A stretch of 64,000 nt of DNA from Thalia democratica (lineage: Eukaryota): positions 30,194,001 to 30,258,000 of the forward strand of contig OZ241832.1 in assembly GCA_965202585.1 (NCBI GenBank), written 5' to 3'. Made by a program: the position numbers and the translations under genes. The notes beneath the pieces are model-generated. The model saw only the letters and a list, made by a program, of their open reading frames with translations, was not told the DNA's origin and ran no database searches. Shown in pieces: positions 34,081 through 61,844 of this stretch. The first letter of the stretch is position 1, and every line of letters begins with the position of its first letter.

Positions 34081-36703
34081 CTATATAAATATACCAATAA
34101 GTCACATCAAGTCAAAAAGGTCAAGTGTAATTTTTATGGGGTTTCAATAATTTGACAATGGAAACTTTTTATAATGTGAAACTAAAACCTTTATTCAGCG
34201 GTCCTTTTATATAGTAATGAATTTAAACGATGTATTAAGTTTTTCATATTTTACAGTAACTCATTTGTATGCAGCACACATAATTAGAGCCATAAATAAT
34301 AATTCATCTAAAAATAAGTATAAGTAAAAAAGTTTAAAAAAGTTTCTAACTAGCTTTGCCCGTCTTCAAAATTGTAATGACTTAAAGTAGAGCAAAAAAA
34401 TGTATTTTATCATTCACTAATAGTTTTTTATCTGGGTATCAAGGTGAAAATTTTAAAAAGAGTCAAAAATAATAAATAACAGCAAAATTTATTTTGATGG
34501 AATAAAGATCATTTTAATGGTTTAGTAGACTCCAGATTAGTAGAAAGTAGACTCCAGAATAAATTGAAAAATGGCGTGTATGGAGCTTGAAAAGATAAAC
34601 TATAAAATTAGATGGGACCTGAATAGACTACAAGCTTTTAATTTGCAAGTTTCATACTGAATCTGGATCAAACCTACAACAAGTTGTATCAAATTCTGAG
34701 TGCAAAAAAGGATTTGGATCAAAGGTGGGTTGCGCAGTTTTCCTAGCTTATTAGAAGTAACCAAAAAATAAAAAGATAGCCAAAACACAACAATCACATA
34801 TAGTTATAGAAAACAAAAGAAGCTGTAATTCTGAGAATTTCTGGTGAAAAAAAAATCTTTTGTCCAGTTTTCATATTTTATTTCAACAAGCAGTAGGCTC
34901 CAATAATTCCACTGTGGACAGCAATTTTGCTTAGCTTCTTGCCCAGTGAAAAGACTTTTCAGGATGGTCAAGCCGTGGAAACCCATTTAGTACGCTAAAC
35001 ATTTATTGAGAAATGACAAAAATGGCATAAAACTTACAAACTTTAAAAAACACAATTTGGTACAGACAAGAATTCTGAATGATATTCTACTTAAGGTGGA
35101 CAATTGAACTCATTAAAAGAAATAGATGTATGTTTTCAATGTGGAAAAAAAGTTTTGACAAGGAAGAAAAAATAATAAATTACATCTGGGTATATAATTT
35201 AGTATTTTTTTATAAATGATTTTTTACAATAATTTAATATTCTCTGCTAATAAAAAGAATGCAGACGTTGGTTCCACACTGACTCCTTTTAGTTAAAAAA
35301 TAAACGAAGAATAACATGGGATTCGTCCAACGTGAAGATAAATTTTCAATAGTAGACTAGTACTTCTTTTAAGAAAAAAACTAGATACTGGTGGGGTTGT
35401 TTTGATAATGGATAAGGAATCAAGCAAGGCTATCTTAGTTTGCTGTGTAAAAGATCTAAAAAATAACTTATAACTAACTGGCATGTCTTTTTATTACATA
35501 TATTTAGACAAGTACGTATAATTTAAAGTTAGATAGTTTAGTAACTATTGATTCTGTATGCAGTGTATGTCAAAAAGATTTTGAGCCTCCAAAAACTAAT
35601 TCCACTTGTTTTGACAACAAACAGAAATATTCCATTTAATATCTGAACATGTGGAATATCTGAACATGAGTTTAGTTTATATGTTAATAATAAAAATCAC
35701 TTTTATTCTATAGACTGTGTAAATAACTTAGGATTAATTAATGTTGGGAGTGATGATTTCTGCAAATGTTGTAATTTTTTTTTTCTAATTTAGATGATTG
35801 TTTGTTATGTGAAGGCTGCTTTAAATGGATACATCTTAAATATTCCTAAGCATCAATTAAAAGGTTTGCAGAAATGTGAAAAAATTATTTATCCTTTTTT
35901 TGTAAAACCATAGAACTAAAAATACCTGTATGTTTTAAATGTATTTTGTGTTGAAAAAACATCTAAATATTATTTAACCTGTTTTTTTTGCTTCCAAAAA
36001 TGTCATTTTGAGTGTTCTCCTGAAAATGAAATGAAACTAAGCCTATACAAAAAATGGGATAACAAGTTTTTTTGTGATATATTTAATGAGTCTGTTTTTC
36101 CCTTTCAGAATATTGTTACTTTGCTTATGATTGTTTTTATGAATCTGTTAAGCCTTTTCTGAAATAAACAAACAGATATAGTTAGATTTGTATAGTGTAT
36201 AAATTAGCAAAAAAATTGTATTAGTATTGTTTTTGTGAATATAAGAAGCTTGAATGCAAATATTTATAAAAATGAGGAATTTTTGAGTGTAGTTGAGGGG
36301 TTGCCTGATGTGATTTGTGTGTGTCAAACGTGGCTAAATGAACTGGTACAAGTACAAAATTTCATTTCATAATGTTTTATAAGAGAAATCAATGCTCACC
36401 TTTTTTCTCGTGCAATGAAAATGTTTTCTTTTAACAGAGCAAATGATCTAGTTGGTGACATCTTATTTAAAGATGGAAGAGTCATATTAATATTACAAAT
36501 CATTGACACATTTTATTGTTGTATTCATGTTGAAAAAAACGTTTCCCACAAACTTAAAAGTAATCCTAACTTAATTTTTTTGCAAAGTAGTTTGACTTAA
36601 TACAAAACCATAGAAGAATTAAATGATAAATATGCTTTCATAATAAGCTCTGAATATTATATTAATAGTAATAAAAATATTCAAGATTATGTAAAAAAGA
36701 TGT

Positions 36704-37176
36704 TGTAATGAATACGTGCATTATTCATTATTCAAAGTTGAGCTCAGAGAATATTTTGAGTTTGACACGCTTCATTGCACTAGCCAATGAGAATCATCTG
36801 ACGTGTTTCAAACTAATTCTGATGCAACTAAATATGAGAAAATGACAGTCAGTGTATTTGTAAGCAGTTGGTGAGTTGGTGTGCAGCTGGAACTACCTTG
36901 TATTGATTTGTGATTGTGTATTGTAAGTATTGTTTTGTGTTAAAAGTGAATATTTTAACTGGTATTTAATTGTTTTAATATTTAAGCCAGGTTTATAGTT
37001 AATAGTTTATTCTTTTACAGTTTCTTCTTTACTAAAAGTTTTACTTAATTTTTAGTTTATTGTTTAAAGTCTTTTAAAGAGATTTAAATAGATTGTAATT
37101 TCTAAAAAGTTTGTCATAGTAATTTATAGTTTTGTATATGCTATTATTTCTTGTTGTGTTTTATATAAAAGATTCA
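36704..37176 (+). repeat. 5' LTR, first 473 bp (interrupted)
   Basis: No mismatch found by eye versus 42277-42749. Confidence 0.97.
36784..37170 (+). promoter_or_regulatory. Candidate LTR transcription signals: CCAAT (36784), TCAGT initiator-like (~36849), GTAAGT...TTTTACAG possible intron (36923-37020), TATATAAAA (37162-37170)
   Basis: Motifs are read directly. TATATAAAA could be either a TATA box or a variant poly(A) signal; function is inferred from LTR context only. Confidence 0.4.
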
Positions 37177-39764
37177 GCGTCCTGCGCGGGGCCCGAGGTT
37201 TAGAGATGTGACAGCTCCTATGTTAGAGAAATTGAATGATAGTCTATTTACCTACTATAACTGTTTAACTGGCTTTTTTGATAACAGAGTTCCTAATGAG
37301 CTTGACATTCGCTCTGTGGCTGATTATAGTGCAGATGTGCAAAAGGAAGTTAACAGGAGGGCTAGTTCTCGAATTATTGACCAGTTTAATACAGAGAGAG
37401 CTGCTATGGGGTTGAGACCGCTGACTGTTGAATATCTAGAAATAGCGAATCTCAAGGGTATGGATAATTTCAATCTACCAGGCAAGCAGATAAATGATCT
37501 TGTGGCTGATAACTTTAAGATCAAAGACGTTGAGATCGTTAGAGCCGACGTTTATCGTGACGGAGGTATGAGGAAAACTAGTTTATTTAAGGCTAGCACA
37601 GTTCATGGTAAAGATCCACTCAAAGAGGTGATCGAATTAGGGACAGTGTCTGAATTATTAAAGCAAGATGAGCTAAAGGTGATTCATCATAATGATAACC
37701 CTCTGGTATTCTTGGTTCATAAAGATTATTTAAAAGTGGGTGATGGCCAGGAGGAAGATGATCCTGAGGTTGCTAAGGGTATCTCTGTGACATGGTGGAG
37801 AGAGTTAGCGCCATTTCTGTTAGAGTTAAAGGATATTAAATTGACGAGTGACGAAAAGAAGTTATTTGATTTGTCAGATAAGGTTCCTTTGAGGCCATAT
37901 ACTTATAAGTTGATGAGGGAGAAGATAGGATGGAATCCAAGATTATTATTGCGAGATTATCCTTACGAGAACAGGAAAAGTTATATGTCATTCGGAAAAG
38001 GTATTGATTCTACATCCGATATATGGAGATTGAATTTCTCCGGTGAGTCAGCGAGGTTACCTAATGTAATTCTGTCAGATGTTCCTACAGACGTCGATGT
38101 TATGGATGAGTTTGAGGTCGAGTCTGACGAATCTGGGTTAGCTATTCAGAAAGCATATAGAGACGATAAGAGGCGTGACTCTGATTTAGTTGGTGTACTT
38201 AATGAAGACGAACTCCAATACTTCAAATCTTCCAATTACAAGCTGAATTTAAGAAGAACGTTGATAAAACGTTTACCGGAGGAGCAATCTGTTTATGGAA
38301 TGATGAAGTTAGAGGATAGGTTAAGGCATGTTGCGATAGTAGCTAGAAGGGATTTTTCTAAAGTTGGACCTGTGGTCCCTGTCCTTCTTAAATTGTTGGG
38401 CATCGCCTATCATGAGGTCGGGAAGAAAGGTTGGTTTAATACTGCAATCAGAAGAGCGGGTGATATGTCTATTATAGTTAATGACTGCTTATTGTTTCAT
38501 AAGACGGTTTCAGTCGTTTTAAATGCGATAGAGTTATATATCTGTTTTTCGTCTATTAAAAGGAGTGATTGGGCGGACAGGTTACTATTACTTTCGACTC
38601 TTTTTCTAATGGCTGATCCTATAATTAACACTGCTAAGCTGAAGAAGATCTTGACGGTTGGGAAACAGGGCTGTTTTTTAAGAGGTAGGAAAGCTGATGG
38701 AGTGCTATACCACAAATCTGATATGAAGGATTTTAATGTCAACATAAATATTGAAAGAGTTCTGAAGGGGGATGCGAAGATGCCTATCCTGCTTTATAAC
38801 AGATATCTTGATGAGGAAGTGTTGAAATTGCGAGAATCTTATGTTGCGGGTCCCAAATGGCAGAAAAAATTAACTGACGGGCTGCTAGATCTAATGATGG
38901 ATATTGTCAATGAGGATGGCTTAGCATGCAACATGTGGAAGTACACTTTTTTGACTTCTGTCAATAGACTGTCGGGATTCGTAGCTTCGGATCAGTTGTC
39001 AGCTTATTTAGTTGCTAGTGATAAAGCGTATAGAATAGTTCCTCCAGAGTCCTTTAAAAACAGATTATCTGAGACGTTTTATTCGGAGGCATTAAATGCA
39101 TTCAAGGCCTTTCCCCCTGAGGATACTCCAAAGACGAAGGTGATAACTGATGAAGCGAGAAGAACAGCCTCTGCTTGGGAAGAAAGACAATCTGTAACTG
39201 TTAAGAAAAAAGCTCCTAGGATTCAGAAGGGGAAGTTGATTTTAGTAGACCAGAAAGTAGAGTTGAATACAGGAAAGAAAAATATCGCTCAAATGACCGC
39301 AAATAAGATGTTAAATGTTGATGTGATTGCCAATATAAATCCAAGGATTTCTTCGGGTTCGAGAATTGTTCCAGGTGGAAAGGAAAAAAGAACGGTCTAT
39401 CCAGTTCCCTTCTGGTTTCAGGTGATTGAGTCTATTGGTAATCAAAGCTTTAATAGATATGTGAATCAAAGATTAAAAAGAGATGGTATTAATAGAAGCT
39501 ATGGGCAAGGGAAAGATTCAGCTCTTCCCCACGAAATTATAGGAGCTATTTTTTATGCTACAACACGGAACGTTCATATGATAGGGTTCGATGTGACGGG
39601 ATTTGATATCTCTCAGACTCCTTATAAGCTGTTAATTAAGAGAGCGTTTAGACAGGCAATTAAGGACTATTTCGAGGGTATCCCTAACGTTATAAGTAAT
39701 AAGAAGTTGAAAGATTTGACTCACGTAGAGACCATGTATATGGCATTTCAAGACAATTTTCAAG
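37177..39764 (+). other. Endogenous viral element: 5'- and 3'-truncated reovirus-like (Sedoreoviridae-type) RNA-dependent RNA polymerase coding sequence, 2,588 bp
   Basis: Motif F SSGSRIVPGGKEKRTVYPVP (~39350-39410; compare recalled orbivirus GSRDVPIKATRTIY and rotavirus GRRDVPGRRTRIIF). Motif A IGFDVTGFDISQ (~39581-39616; compare rotavirus YTDVSQWDSSQ). Intronless, GC-richer than flanks, ends before motifs B and C. Confidence 0.85.
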
Positions 39765-41677
39765 CAACATCGGTAGCCCACAATGGCGTCCTTTTAAGTA
39801 GTGAGAACTACCAATCTTTTAACCAACAGTTAAATAAGTCAGAATTTGATAAAAATAATCAACATTCTTATATGGGTAATTACAGTCAGCACCTTATACA
39901 TGAAAATGTGCAGGCCAATAGACATAAGCAGTCTTTAGATTATGAAAGTTCACTAGAGGTGGAAAACTTGGATATAGAGCAGCTTACAAAACTAGTAGCC
40001 CAAGCTAGAATTTTAGAAAAGAAGGCCACCTTAAAAAAGGAATTAAATTCAATTTATAATAGATTATACAAAGGTCAAAACAAATCCCAAAGTAAGATAA
40101 GTTATAGTGGCAGTAGTCCTGTATATAATTCTTCCCACACTGTAGGGGCTACATATAACAGCAATTTGAAACATAGGACCCTAGAAAATTGCAAACTTTT
40201 TTCCCAGATTGAGGCCATAGGGGACCCTGTCATTGAATTAAGATTTTTTGAGGATAGGTGTAGTACTTTTGGCATTACTGATGATACTGAGAAGTTTGAA
40301 ATACTTCAAAGAATCTGGCCACGTCCTGATATAATAGATTTTTTTGAAGCTTATGATGAGGACAGAACATACTTTAATCTTTTCAAATTTTTAGAAGGCA
40401 AAGGCAGTAAATTGCCAAAAATCTTAGGAGCCCATCCAACATGGGAAGGGCCAGTAAAATTCCAAAATTTATACTTATCAGCAAAAAAGTGGGCAAAATC
40501 AAATGAGCAAGATAGAATTAAGTATTTCATGTATGTTCATGCTCCTGATAAATTAAAAAAGAAAATTAAGGAAAATTTTGGGTTAAAGTATGAGGAATTT
40601 TTAAGGCACACAGAGTCCATATGTGAGATAGAAGAACAGAGAATTGTTGAGCATTCCAAAAACATTTCATATGAACCTCACAAACCATACTATGGTAGGT
40701 ACAGAAGTAAGAGTCACAATAATGTAGGTTGGCAGCAAAACCAAAATCTGTTTCATAATAACCACAGTAGTAACCAGCCTAATCAAGAGCACTATAGGCT
40801 GGGAGACAACCAATGTACAAATAATGGCAGAGACCACTATAACAACAAACAAAATGAAGGCTATCTAAACCAAAATTTTTCCAAAGTACATGGAAAAAAT
40901 GATAGAACAGTAAAACACTGTAATTTTGCAACCATAAAAACTCCTTCAGTTTATTCAATCAGAAAGGCACAAAAATTTAAACCTCAAGCTCCAAGAAAAA
41001 TTATAAGATATGGAGTAACAGGCCGAGTTGTGTGGTTTAATGTCAAAAAGGGATATGGATTTATTCATTGTGATAATAAAGACAGTGATGTTTTTGTTCA
41101 TCACACTGAAATTACTAAAAACAACCCTAATAAGTTTTTAAGGTCACTTGCTCAAGGTGAGGCTGTTCAGTTTGATGTTATAATAAGTGAAAGAAATTTA
41201 CCACAGGCTGTGAACGTAACAGGTCCTAATAAAAAACCAGTTAAAGGTTCCAAATATGCCCAAGACAGGTGGCCAAGCTATAACCAGAGGATTAACAGGC
41301 AACAGAGGCCTCAACAAAAATGTTATTTTGTCAATGACTATTATAAAGTAAGAGAAAAACAGCAAAGAGAGCAAAACTGTTATGAGATAAAACACAACCA
41401 CCAATTAACCCACCAGGGTCAAGCAACTGATGATAGACAATTTGCAAAAGAAAGCACCCAAACTAATTGTTCAAATGATTCATTTAAAATTAGCTCAACA
41501 GGCTATCAACCTATTAGCAATGAACAAGAACAGGTTGAACCTCAGAGTGAAATTCTAAAATTAATTTCAGAAAAAGATGAGTTGATTAAAGAAGGTTTGA
41601 AAATTGAAGAAAATGTTGAGAGTATTAAACTTAAAATTGAAAAATTAAGAAATAAAGTTTTTGAAAGGCTAATGTAA
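37220..41677 (+). CDS. Chimeric 1,485-aa ORF: truncated reovirus-like RdRp, Gag-like protein, Y-box cold-shock domain, C-terminal coiled coil
   Basis: A single open frame (open from 37169; first ATG 37220). The junction ...DNFQA|TSVAHNG... falls at 39764/39765, where LTR-derived sequence resumes. Confidence 0.9.
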   Translation: MLEKLNDSLFTYYNCLTGFFDNRVPNELDIRSVADYSADVQKEVNRRASSRIIDQFNTERAAMGLRPLTVEYLEIANLKGMDNFNLPGKQINDLVADNFKIKDVEIVRADVYRDGGMRKTSLFKASTVHGKDPLKEVIELGTVSELLKQDELKVIHHNDNPLVFLVHKDYLKVGDGQEEDDPEVAKGISVTWWRELAPFLLELKDIKLTSDEKKLFDLSDKVPLRPYTYKLMREKIGWNPRLLLRDYPYENRKSYMSFGKGIDSTSDIWRLNFSGESARLPNVILSDVPTDVDVMDEFEVESDESGLAIQKAYRDDKRRDSDLVGVLNEDELQYFKSSNYKLNLRRTLIKRLPEEQSVYGMMKLEDRLRHVAIVARRDFSKVGPVVPVLLKLLGIAYHEVGKKGWFNTAIRRAGDMSIIVNDCLLFHKTVSVVLNAIELYICFSSIKRSDWADRLLLLSTLFLMADPIINTAKLKKILTVGKQGCFLRGRKADGVLYHKSDMKDFNVNINIERVLKGDAKMPILLYNRYLDEEVLKLRESYVAGPKWQKKLTDGLLDLMMDIVNEDGLACNMWKYTFLTSVNRLSGFVASDQLSAYLVASDKAYRIVPPESFKNRLSETFYSEALNAFKAFPPEDTPKTKVITDEARRTASAWEERQSVTVKKKAPRIQKGKLILVDQKVELNTGKKNIAQMTANKMLNVDVIANINPRISSGSRIVPGGKEKRTVYPVPFWFQVIESIGNQSFNRYVNQRLKRDGINRSYGQGKDSALPHEIIGAIFYATTRNVHMIGFDVTGFDISQTPYKLLIKRAFRQAIKDYFEGIPNVISNKKLKDLTHVETMYMAFQDNFQATSVAHNGVLLSSENYQSFNQQLNKSEFDKNNQHSYMGNYSQHLIHENVQANRHKQSLDYESSLEVENLDIEQLTKLVAQARILEKKATLKKELNSIYNRLYKGQNKSQSKISYSGSSPVYNSSHTVGATYNSNLKHRTLENCKLFSQIEAIGDPVIELRFFEDRCSTFGITDDTEKFEILQRIWPRPDIIDFFEAYDEDRTYFNLFKFLEGKGSKLPKILGAHPTWEGPVKFQNLYLSAKKWAKSNEQDRIKYFMYVHAPDKLKKKIKENFGLKYEEFLRHTESICEIEEQRIVEHSKNISYEPHKPYYGRYRSKSHNNVGWQQNQNLFHNNHSSNQPNQEHYRLGDNQCTNNGRDHYNNKQNEGYLNQNFSKVHGKNDRTVKHCNFATIKTPSVYSIRKAQKFKPQAPRKIIRYGVTGRVVWFNVKKGYGFIHCDNKDSDVFVHHTEITKNNPNKFLRSLAQGEAVQFDVIISERNLPQAVNVTGPNKKPVKGSKYAQDRWPSYNQRINRQQRPQQKCYFVNDYYKVREKQQREQNCYEIKHNHQLTHQGQATDDRQFAKESTQTNCSNDSFKISSTGYQPISNEQEQVEPQSEILKLISEKDELIKEGLKIEENVESIKLKIEKLRNKVFERLM
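39765..39782 (+). repeat. Last 18 bp of the 5' LTR (caacatcggtagcccaca)
   Basis: Identical to 42918-42935, the end of the 3' LTR. Confidence 0.95.
39784..39795 (+). promoter_or_regulatory. Candidate tRNA primer-binding site (TGGCGTCCTTTT)
   Basis: TGG one base after the LTR-terminal CA is the canonical PBS position; the cognate tRNA was not identified. Confidence 0.7.
40208..40630 (+). other. Helical Gag/capsid-like core within the ORF
   Basis: ELRFFEDRCSTFGITDDTEKFEILQRIW...RTYFNLFKFL loosely fits the Gypsy-type gag pattern F..FE..F...GI.D...K...L....Y..LK..L; its position just downstream of the PBS supports Gag. Confidence 0.55.
40997..41269 (+). other. Y-box-type cold-shock domain within the ORF
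   Basis: GRVVWFNVKKGYGFI (RNP1), DVFVHHTEI (RNP2), KNNPNKFLRSL..GE.V.FDV and NVTGP...PVKGSKYAQDR closely parallel the recalled YBX1 CSD plus its C-terminal extension. Confidence 0.95.
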
Positions 41678-42250
41678 AATAACATTATTCTAGGGTTTAG
41701 TTAGGCATGACAATTGAGTGATGATTCTGTATGACTAAAAGAAATTTTTATTTTTTATTTTTTGTGAAAAAATTTTGATTCTAATACCAATTGATACTAT
41801 ATTGCCAAAGATTTTTTTTTTGAGTTTAATATTTTGATTAAGAGTTGTTTATCTATTTATAGTAAAAATAATATTTGGAATTGTAACCGTAAATTTATTG
41901 ATATTTCATTTTATTTATTGTGCAAATACTATTATGTTGATACCATTTTTTTTTTTTTTTTTTTACCATGTTGTCTAAGATTTTTTACTGAGTTAGTTAT
42001 TCTGATAAAACTTATGTTATTATATAAATTTTTTATTATGTGAAAACCAAATACTAAATTTTTCTTTCTCCTATTAATATTCTACTTAAGTTTGATTTTA
42101 AAATTAGTTCATGACTATTTTGAATTTATTTGTTCTTTACACTGTTCCTTTTATTTTGTTTTTTGCTGTTTACCAATTAGATTTAGGTGAACATCACCTT
42201 AGAATTCTTCTAGCAGGAGGCAAGCAGAGGATAGAGTGATAATCCTCTTC

Positions 42251-42276
42251 AAAAAAAAAAGGACTACAGAAGATAG
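42251..42276 (+). promoter_or_regulatory. Candidate polypurine tract
   Basis: aaaaaaaaaaggactacagaagatag lies immediately 5' of the 3' LTR. Confidence 0.6.
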
Positions 42277-42935
42277 TGTAATGAATACGTGCATTATTCA
42301 TTATTCAAAGTTGAGCTCAGAGAATATTTTGAGTTTGACACGCTTCATTGCACTAGCCAATGAGAATCATCTGACGTGTTTCAAACTAATTCTGATGCAA
42401 CTAAATATGAGAAAATGACAGTCAGTGTATTTGTAAGCAGTTGGTGAGTTGGTGTGCAGCTGGAACTACCTTGTATTGATTTGTGATTGTGTATTGTAAG
42501 TATTGTTTTGTGTTAAAAGTGAATATTTTAACTGGTATTTAATTGTTTTAATATTTAAGCCAGGTTTATAGTTAATAGTTTATTCTTTTACAGTTTCTTC
42601 TTTACTAAAAGTTTTACTTAATTTTTAGTTTATTGTTTAAAGTCTTTTAAAGAGATTTAAATAGATTGTAATTTCTAAAAAGTTTGTCATAGTAATTTAT
42701 AGTTTTGTATATGCTATTATTTCTTGTTGTGTTTTATATAAAAGATTCATCACTCAAAACTGTCTTGTCTGATTTATATAAAGTAGTATTAAGTAGTGTA
42801 TAGTTTCTATGTCCAACTATAATAATATGAATGAGAAGTATGAACAAAAAGGTCAGGTTGACTATCTGCCCACAGTAAGTCACCCTGACCCAACTGAGGC
42901 TTTAGATGTTGAGTCACCAACATCGGTAGCCCACA
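42277..42935 (+). repeat. Intact 3' LTR, 659 bp
   Basis: TG...CA, followed by TSD ATGT; contains both segments found in the split 5' LTR plus the 168 bp (42750-42917) missing there. Confidence 0.95.
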
Positions 42936-43069
42936 ATGTATTCTAAAATAACTAAAGCAATAGTTGAGCACTAGTAAGAGTGTTTATTGAATTAAGAGCC
43001 TAACTGTAAGTTTTAATCTCAAAAAAAAATATTTGTTTTAAATATTTATGTTTTTGGCTAAAAAGGAGT

Positions 43070-49249: not shown

Positions 49250-50258
49250 TCACACACGAATAACAAAACAGAGCTTCCATAGGAGCTGGAGAAATTTTTT
49301 TGACCAAACACCTTCATCGACGTCATACACTGTTACGGGATACGCACATTCGTGGAACATGAATATCTTGCTTCCGATCGACAAAGCTTTGCTGTACCGA
49401 AGCTGCATGTAGGGCACTCTCAATGCAACGAACCTGCCGTCGTCTAAAACCTCGCACTGGTTCACTCTTCCTTTTAGTAGCAGTAGTTTTCACGATCGTC
49501 AGCAACTTTACCTATTTCTCCCCATTTGTTATTAGCAGGCGAATATTTGCTAACAGACTTTACCAAAGTGAACTCGGTGTCGTGCCCACCGAAAACATAA
49601 ACCTCAAATTGCACACAGGCCACTTTTGAGTCTCTTCGTTCTTCAACATGGAAAACAGAGATTTTGTTTTAAAACTGTTAGCATTAAGCTGCAAGACGCC
49701 CCGCAGAGCTGTCTCGTGTTCTAAACAGTATCCTCCTACGACTAATATGTTAGACGACTCTTGTGTACAATACCTCTTTGTATAATAAACACAAGACCTG
49801 CTCGGTAGCTTTGTACCTTTGTCCAGCAAAAATTCATTTATTACTGAAATGCAGTCGGCTGTTTTAGCTAAAGAACTAGATCCGTTTAAAATATTTCTCA
49901 ACGTGTTTTCTGATAGCAAATTAAGACGAACTTCTAGCAACAGTTGTTTCGCGAATTTACCACGTTGTTTGAGATCGTAGCTCAACCACTCATTTACAGC
50001 ATTAAACACTTCAAGTTCCGATTTAACGCGCAGTTCAGGAGACGAAAGTATTCTTTTCATTGAAGAGTAGTTTAGTTCTAAAAAGTTTTCTTTTTTAACT
50101 ACTACTGCGAAACAGCGCTCTATATAGCTGAGCGCTGTTTCGCGAAAAGTTGTTGGAAAAAGTTCGTAGGCAGCAGCAGCGTTATTAACATCCAGCCTCT
50201 TTTTAACAATTTTACATACTTTACTAATTTTGGTTTCATCTAAAGAAAGTTTTGTCAA
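49250..50258 (-). pseudogene. Intronless BACK-Kelch (KLHL-like) pseudogene; BTB domain absent
   Basis: BACK domain FLELNYSSMKRILSSPELRVKSELEVFNAVNEWL...VRLNLL. After a frameshift near 49650 the Kelch repeat EVYVFGGHD...SVSKYSPANNKW follows, then a stop and another frame with KIFMF...VTVYDVDEGVW. Confidence 0.85.
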
Positions 50259-51519
50259 CTTGATAGCTGTAATTGTCTAAGAGTCATCTAAAGCTAAAAA
50301 TACTGTTTGATTAATTAGTTTAATGTACTTTAAATTGAAAAAACATTGTCAAAAGGTATTGTTTTTAGTATTTAAGTGATAATGTTTTAAATAAAAAATT
50401 TTTTTTTTTTAGATTTAGATATAATTAAAAAGTTATACAACTATCCCATTGAAAAACAAGATTTTTTTGTTTTGCGATGGAACTTTAAGTGTACAGTTGA
50501 AAAAGTAAGATTTGTTTTATTTCAATATATTTTAGAGAATTCATAACTCAATTTTTATGCAAGATATTAATAACACAAACCTACCTTGTTTAGCAAGATC
50601 TTTATATATATTTCGTGTCTTCTTGCTAGAAGATTTCAATAATATTTTCTTGCACATGTTCACATAATCAAAACTTTTATAGTTATTACGAATTGCATTG
50701 AAACTGAGTTTATTCTTATGGTAGTTTTCTAGTTTCGTCTTTTTCCAACTAATTCTGTCAGGAAGAATTGCTTTTGGCGAGAACTTGTTTGAATTTCTTT
50801 CCATGAGTTAATTAAGCTGTAAAAAGTTTAAAAATAGTTTAGAGTTAAATTTATTCATGTTTGTAGCTTTTAGTAAAATAATGTATTAATAAGTGGGTAG
50901 GTACCAAAAAATGCACGAAGTGACATTTTTGCATGAAGAGTAGCTTTTGCACGAAGACACTTTTGCACGAGAAGTCACTTTTGCACGGGTTGAAATTTTT
51001 TTAAAATTTATTTTTCTTTTTTCTCACTATCACTGTTACCCTTACCCGGTAATTTTTTTTTCTATTTCTTATTATTACTATTTTTTTAATCACTGTTACC
51101 TCTATCCCTTACGCTTTGTCGATTTTTTAAATCTATTGTAAATATGTAAGGTATGAATGTTGGTAAAGTTGATTTATTGGTACTACTCACCATAACTAAA
51201 CCCTACCTTATTAAACAGCTATCATTATTATACTAGATGCTACTTTGTATAAGTTAGACAAGACATTTTGAACAATGTAGCTATTATAAAAATAAAACAA
51301 AACACTATACAAAATCTCTAGTTAAAAAATATAAAATAAAAAAAATTTTTAGTACAAAAAATAAAATATAAGTAATTTTATGTTAAGTATTTAAAAATTT
51401 GCCGCTTTTAAAGTTTATGTGTTTTGTAGGGCATATTTTTTATGAACATTACCTATTTGTGCATGAAACTTTGCGTATTTTTTGGTGAATCAGCTTTGAC
51501 AGTTGTATTATGAGTACAT

Positions 51520-61232: not shown

Positions 61233-61844
61233 AAAACTATCCATCATAACCATCTCAAAGAGTGTCACATCACCCAGGACCTGGTCGCACAGAGGCACAA
61301 GGCGGTGATGGAGAAGCTTTGGGATAGATACGACCGAATCGAGAGAATGTATTGGAGAGGCGAGTCCGGAGAATACGGTGCCGACTTCTACCTGCAGGAC
61401 CCACAGAGGTTCCGAAAGACCGTGAGCCTTGCCATTATGGATTCCGGAGTGAACCTATGCAAGGTCAGAGACCGCTTCTACGGGAAAGAGGCGACGGTGT
61501 ACGCGCATTCCAACGGTGCGGAGGAAGTGGTCTTCCTAGTGATGGATGATCGAGGGGCCTGGGCGAGAGGCAGCCGGACCGATTTGAGAAGAATTGGTTT
61601 GGAGAAAACGGTTCTTGAAGCTCTGACAGTTGAGGTTTTGGCATGGACCGCCAAGACAGTTGCGTATTGGAATCGCAACTCGCGAACCCACAGGATACTG
61701 GCCGATAGTTTAAGTCTGAATGCAGAAACTGAAATAGAAGTGTTGATGGCAGCAATCACATGGTTGAATTCAGGTAATGGAAGAGAATTTTTCGAAGAAC
61801 TTTTTTTATATATTCGATTTTCCTTTTTGCACGGAAAACATTAG
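61233..61844 (+). CDS. GC-rich ORF (open from 61233, ATG 61308); tentative N-terminal part of a divergent CAF1/DEDD exonuclease-like protein
   Basis: TWLNSGNGREF has the spacing of the recalled CAF1 KWLSFHSGYDF (ExoII); AIMDSG could be a degenerate ExoI; the composition contrasts sharply with the flanks. Confidence 0.35.
   Translation, partial: KTIHHNHLKECHITQDLVAQRHKAVMEKLWDRYDRIERMYWRGESGEYGADFYLQDPQRFRKTVSLAIMDSGVNLCKVRDRFYGKEATVYAHSNGAEEVVFLVMDDRGAWARGSRTDLRRIGLEKTVLEALTVEVLAWTAKTVAYWNRNSRTHRILADSLSLNAETEIEVLMAAITWLNSGNGREFFEELFLYIRFSFLHGKH

Follow-up and report, generated by a model that had tools for sequence, protein, structure and literature searches.

Reovirus polymerase sequence within one long terminal repeat of a Ty3/gypsy element of Thalia democratica: probable capture by template switching during reverse transcription

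The capture of RNA-virus sequence by long terminal repeat (LTR) retrotransposons is an accepted model for the origin of many endogenous viral elements (EVEs) in invertebrates. In the LCMV-IAP system (Geuking et al. 2009, as described in PMC3205384 and PMC5177903), a non-retroviral RNA is made into DNA and integrated through recombination with an LTR retrotransposon. This report addresses a retrotransposon lying in a window of 64,000 nucleotides of the Thalia democratica genome (contig OZ241832.1, positions 30,194,001 to 30,258,000, forward strand), in whose 5' LTR a fragment of a reovirus-type RNA-dependent RNA polymerase (RdRp) gene replaces part of the repeat. Template switching by the reverse transcriptase (RT) of the element onto viral RNA is very probably the origin of this arrangement, as judged from sequence comparison.

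The locus resembles LCMV-IAP in that a non-retroviral RNA was integrated through LTR retrotransposon recombination. However, that case is somatic, murine and arenaviral, whereas the present one is heritable, concerns the gene of a double-stranded RNA (dsRNA) virus in an invertebrate-type genome, and occupies one LTR of a complete element with its target-site duplication (TSD). The hybrids and EVEs of Aedes aegypti share with it a Ty3/gypsy partner, the same polarity of virus and element, and a copy-choice model (PMC6797480; bioRxiv 10.1101/127498), for which PMC3187697 gives further background. The Aedes EVEs are fragments in piRNA clusters, and their authors infer from coverage that recombination is sequence-independent (PMC6797480; 10.1101/127498), whereas short homology, exact or imperfect, is present at 3/3 virus-LTR junctions here (two in the window, one in a second chimera). 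The eBxnv-1 sequence of Bursaphelenchus xylophilus, where a Bel/Pao element carries a nodavirus RdRp, is likewise a recent, low-copy germline capture by an LTR element; its host element is degenerate, and the gene, placed between the two LTRs, retains the catalytic sites (PMC5177903), unlike the window gene, which replaces part of the U5 of one LTR, stops short of motifs B and C, and continues in frame into gag. The capture pathway is already known, and what is unusual is a germline record of it at single-base resolution; a literature search that covered few subscription journals gave no earlier account of viral sequence replacing part of just one LTR with its microhomologies resolved.

The element and its viral insert

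The retrotransposon spans positions 36704-42935 of the window and is bounded by ATGT duplications, which enclose the whole element and not the viral segment. Its parts, all on the plus strand, are as follows.

36700-36703, plus: 5' TSD, ATGT (sequence read)
36704-37176, plus: positions 1-473 of the 5' LTR, with TG start, identical at 473/473 positions to 42277-42749
37177-39764, plus: reovirus-type RdRp (VP1-like) fragment, sense to the element (protein and structure-database matches, longer viral copy on C4)
39771-39782, plus: final 12 unambiguous nt of the 5' LTR, with CA end (LTR and virus comparison)
39784-39792, plus: primer-binding site (PBS), 9 nt complementary to the 3' end of tRNA-Asn(GTT) with CCA (tRNA comparison)
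42251-42276, plus: purine-rich stretch at the position of the polypurine tract, interrupted and not a pure purine tract (sequence read)
42277-42935, plus: intact 3' LTR, 659 nt (LTR self-comparison)
42750-42917, plus: 168 nt absent from the 5' LTR, including the family gag start codon at 42809 (LTR comparison)
42936-42939, plus: 3' TSD, ATGT (sequence read)

The match between the two LTRs ends at 37177/42750, and the last 18 nt of the LTR recur at 39765-39782, separated from the PBS by a 1-nt spacer. An earlier reading of the sequence alone had described a 168-bp replacement leaving 473 and 18 bp of the 5' LTR beside an intact 3' LTR; this is confirmed, and refined to 463 and 12 unambiguous nt, as 10 of the 473 left nt and 6 of the 18 right nt are shared with the virus. 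When shared junction bases are counted, the viral insert measures 2,588-2,604 nt (2,588 nt at minimum) and the replaced stretch 168-184 nt. The 168 nt were lost from the window copy, because the other family members examined keep them in their 5' LTR (7/7; six whole, and a long-LTR variant its 3' half). The window LTR pair shows 0/473 differences, the 5' LTRs of the seven other members being 1.3-4.3% divergent, and a 4-bp TSD flanks 6/7 of these copies, the seventh having a mis-set end coordinate. By its sequence the element is classed as a young, non-autonomous Ty3/gypsy (Metaviridae) LTR element, the pol order of the family by itself being compatible with Bel/Pao too. Within the LTR, positions 220-317 (window 36923-37020) hold GTAAGT and, about 100 nt later, a pyrimidine run with CAG, possibly an intron of the 5' leader.

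The viral insert has a G+C content of 39%, against 29-30% in flank and LTR. It starts about 50 codons into the viral frame and holds palm motif A at 39590; motifs B and GDD (C) are absent from it and present downstream in the C4 copy. Lacking these two motifs, the fragment cannot work as a polymerase. The best and only structural-database match of its translation is the VP1 chain of PDB 7xr3 (E 7.7e-42, residues 283-830), which we take to be VP1 of mud crab reovirus. Five proteins among 1.84 billion representatives are matched, the best, at E 1.3e-37 and 25% identity, belonging to a cluster in which one member bears the name RdRp, and this closest library relative is itself similar to 7xr3 over nearly its full length. 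PMC10155992 cites a K-x3-H pair, Lys642/His646, which fits the 7xr3 chain at an offset of 3. Atlas matches of the viral part were to RdRp clusters only, from mixed phyla, with a weak recognition value below the threshold of the tool; no Pfam family matched it, and in a homologue search with longer proteins 0/7,899 candidates were scored. Taken together, these matches identify the insert as an EVE derived from a Reovirales RdRp, and 25% identity to the closest library relative suggests a donor virus of a distinct, undescribed lineage. Related reovirus-type polymerase fragments also occur on ENA contigs of 359-397 kb (P0004, P0005, P0006), where they are probably endogenous in other hosts.

Insertion of a viral mRNA into the LTR by a long interspersed nuclear element (LINE), to which, in the sequence-only reading, a TSD or poly(A) tail flanking the viral part would have pointed, is a route known for other RNA-virus insertions (PMC3205384). 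The junctions contradict it: the viral segment has neither TSD nor poly(A), the target carries a deletion, and both viral ends are internal to the gene. Its probability is close to nil.

Junctions, further copies and the case for template switching

Both junctions were compared with the C4 copy of the same viral gene, which reaches beyond each of them and served as a donor-like reference.

37167-37176, plus: left microhomology AAAAGATTCA, 10 nt, common to LTR and virus (occurs in the C4 viral copy)
39765-39770, plus: right microhomology CAACAT, 6 nt (the C4 and C6 viral copies both have it, followed by more virus)

The microhomology for which the sequence-only reading had proposed to test both junctions is thereby found, at 10 and 6 nt. 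Among 2,168,769 possible LTR-by-virus junction placements, 55 fall in matches of at least 10 nt and 4,530 in matches of at least 6 nt, so that the chance of such microhomology is 2.5e-5 on the left and 2e-3 on the right. The LTR and the viral gene share five sense matches of 10 nt and none longer. The right junction lies 12-18 nt from the PBS. In C4, the stretch upstream of the left junction stays in frame for 148 nt up to an ATG and is dissimilar to two parent elements.

A protein search of the genome for the viral gene (9/9 candidates scored) gave seven matches at four loci, with which a DNA search was concordant. These represent three independent insertions, namely the window element with its duplicate on C8, a chimera on C6, and the copy on C4. 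Two of the three are joined to this LTR family, both in virus sense and both at the 5' LTR, so that virus and element share polarity in 2/2 chimeras; the 145 exact LTR starts in 802 Mb together make up about 0.012% of the genome. Switching by RT onto plus-sense viral RNA, as had been proposed, is strongly favoured because of this polarity, the recurrence in so small a target, the proximity to the PBS, and the C6 chimera; that neither a TSD nor poly(A) borders the viral segment supports it further.

In the C6 chimera (G000:C6:41288927-41292947), 645 nt of virus are joined to LTR position ~141 of another family member, and the crossover lies within an imperfect match of about 14 nt. The order is AAGT, virus, LTR from 141 to its end, internal region, LTR 1-131, a foldback to an inverted LTR start, and AAGT, with virus at the 5' LTR only, as in the window. 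The virus begins at a TGTAA that occurs only once in sense orientation in the 3,291-nt viral copy, the other end is an inverted U3 end, and the AAGT duplication has a chance of about 1 in 100-250 as a 4-bp match. As both ends resemble the LTR start and carry a 4-bp duplication, integrase probably handled a molecule that was already chimeric. We infer that the C6 chimera formed before integration and entered through its viral end; for the window copy, the sequence is compatible with either timing. Both limits of the element part of C6 fall no more than 10 nt from LTR position 135-140, which would be expected either of an opened one-LTR circle or of an end-to-end RNA copy whose R is short. A 20-bp tandem array lies about 400 nt away from the chimera.

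The C8 copy, 69 kb upstream of the window element, has the same junctions, flanks and TSD, with identical LTR parts; it differs by 0.3-0.4% from the window element and its 5' flank. The block G000:C8:30153426-30190551 is 98.6-99.7% identical to window 29385-52829, with no N gap between them. A retrotransposed daughter is ruled out by the same flanks and TSD, and by its sequence the copy is taken as a segmental duplicate or an uncollapsed haplotype. Daughter copies with virus in both LTRs, which had been expected to exist, were found in neither the protein nor the DNA search of the genome.

The C4 copy (G000:C4:294440-297730, minus strand) is 3,291 nt long and 97.4% identical to the window viral sequence, with three small deletions. 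The two are separated by 27 synonymous and 29 non-synonymous changes (pN/pS 0.29, p 8.5e-6), the pattern that decay would add to divergence between two genotypes of a virus that was replicating; C4 is the older copy. C4 was rejected as direct DNA donor on account of this pN/pS and its own deletions. It sits between 1-kb direct repeats that are 92% alike.

Two further explanations have to be weighed against these copies. A break in the 5' LTR, patched after integration by microhomology-mediated end joining with viral cDNA, would suit the 168-nt loss and the 10- and 6-nt microhomologies, would leave the LTRs asymmetric by no additional step, and finds a parallel in C4, where the same viral gene was inserted free of any LTR. 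We regard it as unlikely: 2/3 insertions strike a 0.012% target in the same polarity, C6 carries a viral end cut by integrase, and the window LTRs are identical, which leaves little time for a later event. The C8 element, which holds an internal tandem duplication of 2.56 kb, shows a 9-nt templated insertion at its duplication junction (n=1), whereas the viral junctions of the window are clean, and virus-free alleles numbered 0 among 40 scored flank matches.

An earlier endogenous copy, since lost or left unassembled, might instead have supplied the donor as transcript or cDNA, or unintegrated cDNAs might have been joined. The window and C6 viral sequences are nearly one genotype (3 differences in 570 nt, 2 of them private to the window copy), yet neither is derivable from the other as they stand; they are separate captures, because C6 carries virus past the right junction of the window copy, which in turn carries virus from far upstream of where C6 starts. 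However, no such donor copy was present among the 9/9 scored candidates, a single infection episode accounts for the identity equally well, and the viral frame of the window is undamaged. This origin appears quite improbable.

Timing of the switch within reverse transcription

Normal reverse transcription gives identical LTRs (PMC6894440), and the one-sided LTR narrows the step at which capture occurred. Our preference, held with modest confidence, is for copy-choice capture late in minus-strand synthesis. Element RNA and plus-sense RNA of the reovirus polymerase segment would have been co-packaged in a particle whose pol came from an autonomous family member, and the 3' LTR would have been synthesized normally at the start of reverse transcription. 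Late in minus-strand synthesis, RT would have passed the PBS, entered U5 for 12-18 nt, paired with viral RNA through CAACAT, copied some 2.6 kb in the direction of the viral 5' end, and gone back via AAAAGATTCA to element RNA or to plus-strand strong-stop DNA, omitting the 168 nt. Integrase would then have inserted the product with the TSD ATGT, any heteroduplex in the 5' LTR resolving to the viral strand, and the locus would later have been duplicated together with its flanks. In Ty3, the plus strand transfers to the complements of R and U5 at the 3' end of the minus strand, and a minus strand running into U5 is accordingly a normal step (PMC5371799); the short PBS of the window element, 9 nt, is also counted for a late switch. 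Replacement of the 3' LTR from another copy was rejected for the copies seen (40 of 1,953 candidates scored), and the seven other copies are not its source, because their 5' LTRs differ by 1.3-4.3%.

In the early scheme of the sequence-only reading, RT leaves the element RNA 12-18 nt after priming, copies the virus and returns at the 10-nt match, after which a plus-strand strong-stop DNA of more than 3 kb transfers to a second, normal minus strand. The right junction adjoins the PBS, where synthesis begins, the same microhomologies fit, and two co-packaged RNAs from one parent would yield identical LTRs. However, the default product of such a switch has virus in both LTRs, the arrangement missing from the genome, and an extra intermolecular plus-strand transfer is required; PMC6894440 and PMC3187697, in their accessible parts, describe intermolecular transfer for the first jump and none for the second. 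The jump onto the virus stands, and the early timing does not fare as well: the late switch, which that reading had named among its alternatives, is simpler for the LTR asymmetry because two jumps suffice, one rare step fewer. An early switch is left as a possible but clearly less probable course.

The early scheme also placed the R/U5 boundary, as poly(A) site, at the GATTCA that ends at LTR position 473. Features of the LTR argue against this, the inferred borders lying in another part.

36827-36883, plus: LTR 124-180, with ACTAAA, TCAGT and a step to G+T-rich sequence, probable vicinity of the U3/R/U5 borders (sequence features)

The LTR has neither AATAAA nor ATTAAA, and its TATAAA at 461 lies just 7 nt before 473. 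ACTAAA occurs at 124 and TCAGT at 146; G+T rises from 0.47 to 0.72 at 141-180, and after position 473 stays at 0.47-0.57. In Metaviridae, U5 is described as beginning at a G/T-rich stretch (PMC3601003). This circumstantial evidence points to a boundary near LTR position 145 (window 42420). The left junction needs no R/U5 boundary, because the 10-nt microhomology explains it, and the proposal that RT returned at the R/U5 border is very improbable. Poly(A)-tailed genomic copies ending at LTR ~140 or ~473 numbered 0 and 0, which is uninformative on either site.

Several points weigh against late capture by template switching. Polymerase-theta end joining, too, typically leaves microhomology of this size. 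C4 shows that the virus can also enter the genome with this LTR family leaving no trace, no similarity to it being found in the 20 kb fetched around the copy; C4 also serves as stand-in for the virus, and upstream of the left junction it is supported by its frame and by its dissimilarity to two parent elements and has no protein match. Early and late switches give the same junctions, and preference for the late one rests on parsimony and on analogy with Ty3 of yeast. Finally, according to Tassetto et al., homology does not drive the recombination of virus and LTR (PMC6797480).

The fused frame, the element family and the meaning of the capture

The coding features of the element are as follows.

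37169-41677, plus: open frame of 1,502 codons, viral fragment fused to the gag-CSD frame, first ATG at 37220 (open-frame listing)
39785-41677, plus: gag-like frame of the element, no pol (at least 150 related places in the genome; gag common to the pol-bearing member)
41018-41224, plus: cold-shock domain (CSD), PF00313, inside the element frame (E 6e-20)

The family gag frame begins within the LTR (position 533, window 42809) and runs through the LTR end and the PBS, and the viral replacement took out this start codon. An in-frame fusion of virus and gag is expected by chance in one of three cases. Selection on the fusion frame gave no signal (window against C8 duplicate, 3 synonymous and 4 non-synonymous changes, p 0.17), and the duplicate has a stop codon in gag. 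Most likely, the fusion arose as a by-product and lacks polymerase activity. Among seven sequencing runs listed, three share at least half of the sequence words, and four RNA runs score 0.12-0.13, values that give no evidence of expression, habitat or a free virus. An autonomous member (G000:C7:63955937-63962560) has the same LTR and gag and encodes protease, RT, RNase H and integrase in the order PR-RT-RH-IN; RT and integrase are therefore available in trans to the window element.

In the non-autonomous members, the N-terminal part of gag is kept, and the knuckle-like end and pol are replaced by about 1 kb with the CSD, which presumably resembles the Y-box type. Compared with two divergent copies, the cold-shock region gives pN/pS values of 0.21 and 0.26 (p 0.002 and 0.004); comparisons with four others are not significant. 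Five related CSD-bearing proteins were found in ENA contigs, and no publication on a gag-CSD element was recognised, judged by titles. A related gag family, at 68% identity, has frames of 418-419 aa in dozens of near-identical copies and was apparently active recently. Elsewhere in the window, open frames at 49560-50276 (minus) and 61233-61844 (plus) match BACK (BTB-kelch) at E 9e-22 and 0.0013, and positions 1-32000 hold diverged multi-kilobase repeats and a 122-bp tandem unit.

Both crossovers, an intact element with its TSD and a donor-like sequence spanning the junctions are rarely found together in nature, and here they lie in one genome. The crossovers use short homology, contrary to the sequence-independent view; a dsRNA virus would be able to donate sequence via its plus-sense RNA, and C6 indicates that integrase can use a viral end. 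A more speculative, on balance rather unlikely, proposal is that the CSD-bearing gypsy family represents a recurrent trap for viral RNA, in which a Gag with broad RNA binding packages reovirus mRNA and RT switches at short homologies. As one joint claim, it would further hold that the cold-shock domain is under selection, that switches fall near pause points of RT at the 5' LTR, that integrase accepts chimeras even through a viral look-alike end, and that the window and C6 copies stem from one infection episode. If this were true, the LTR promoter of the window locus could drive expression of RNA in viral sense or of a truncated fusion between RdRp and Gag.

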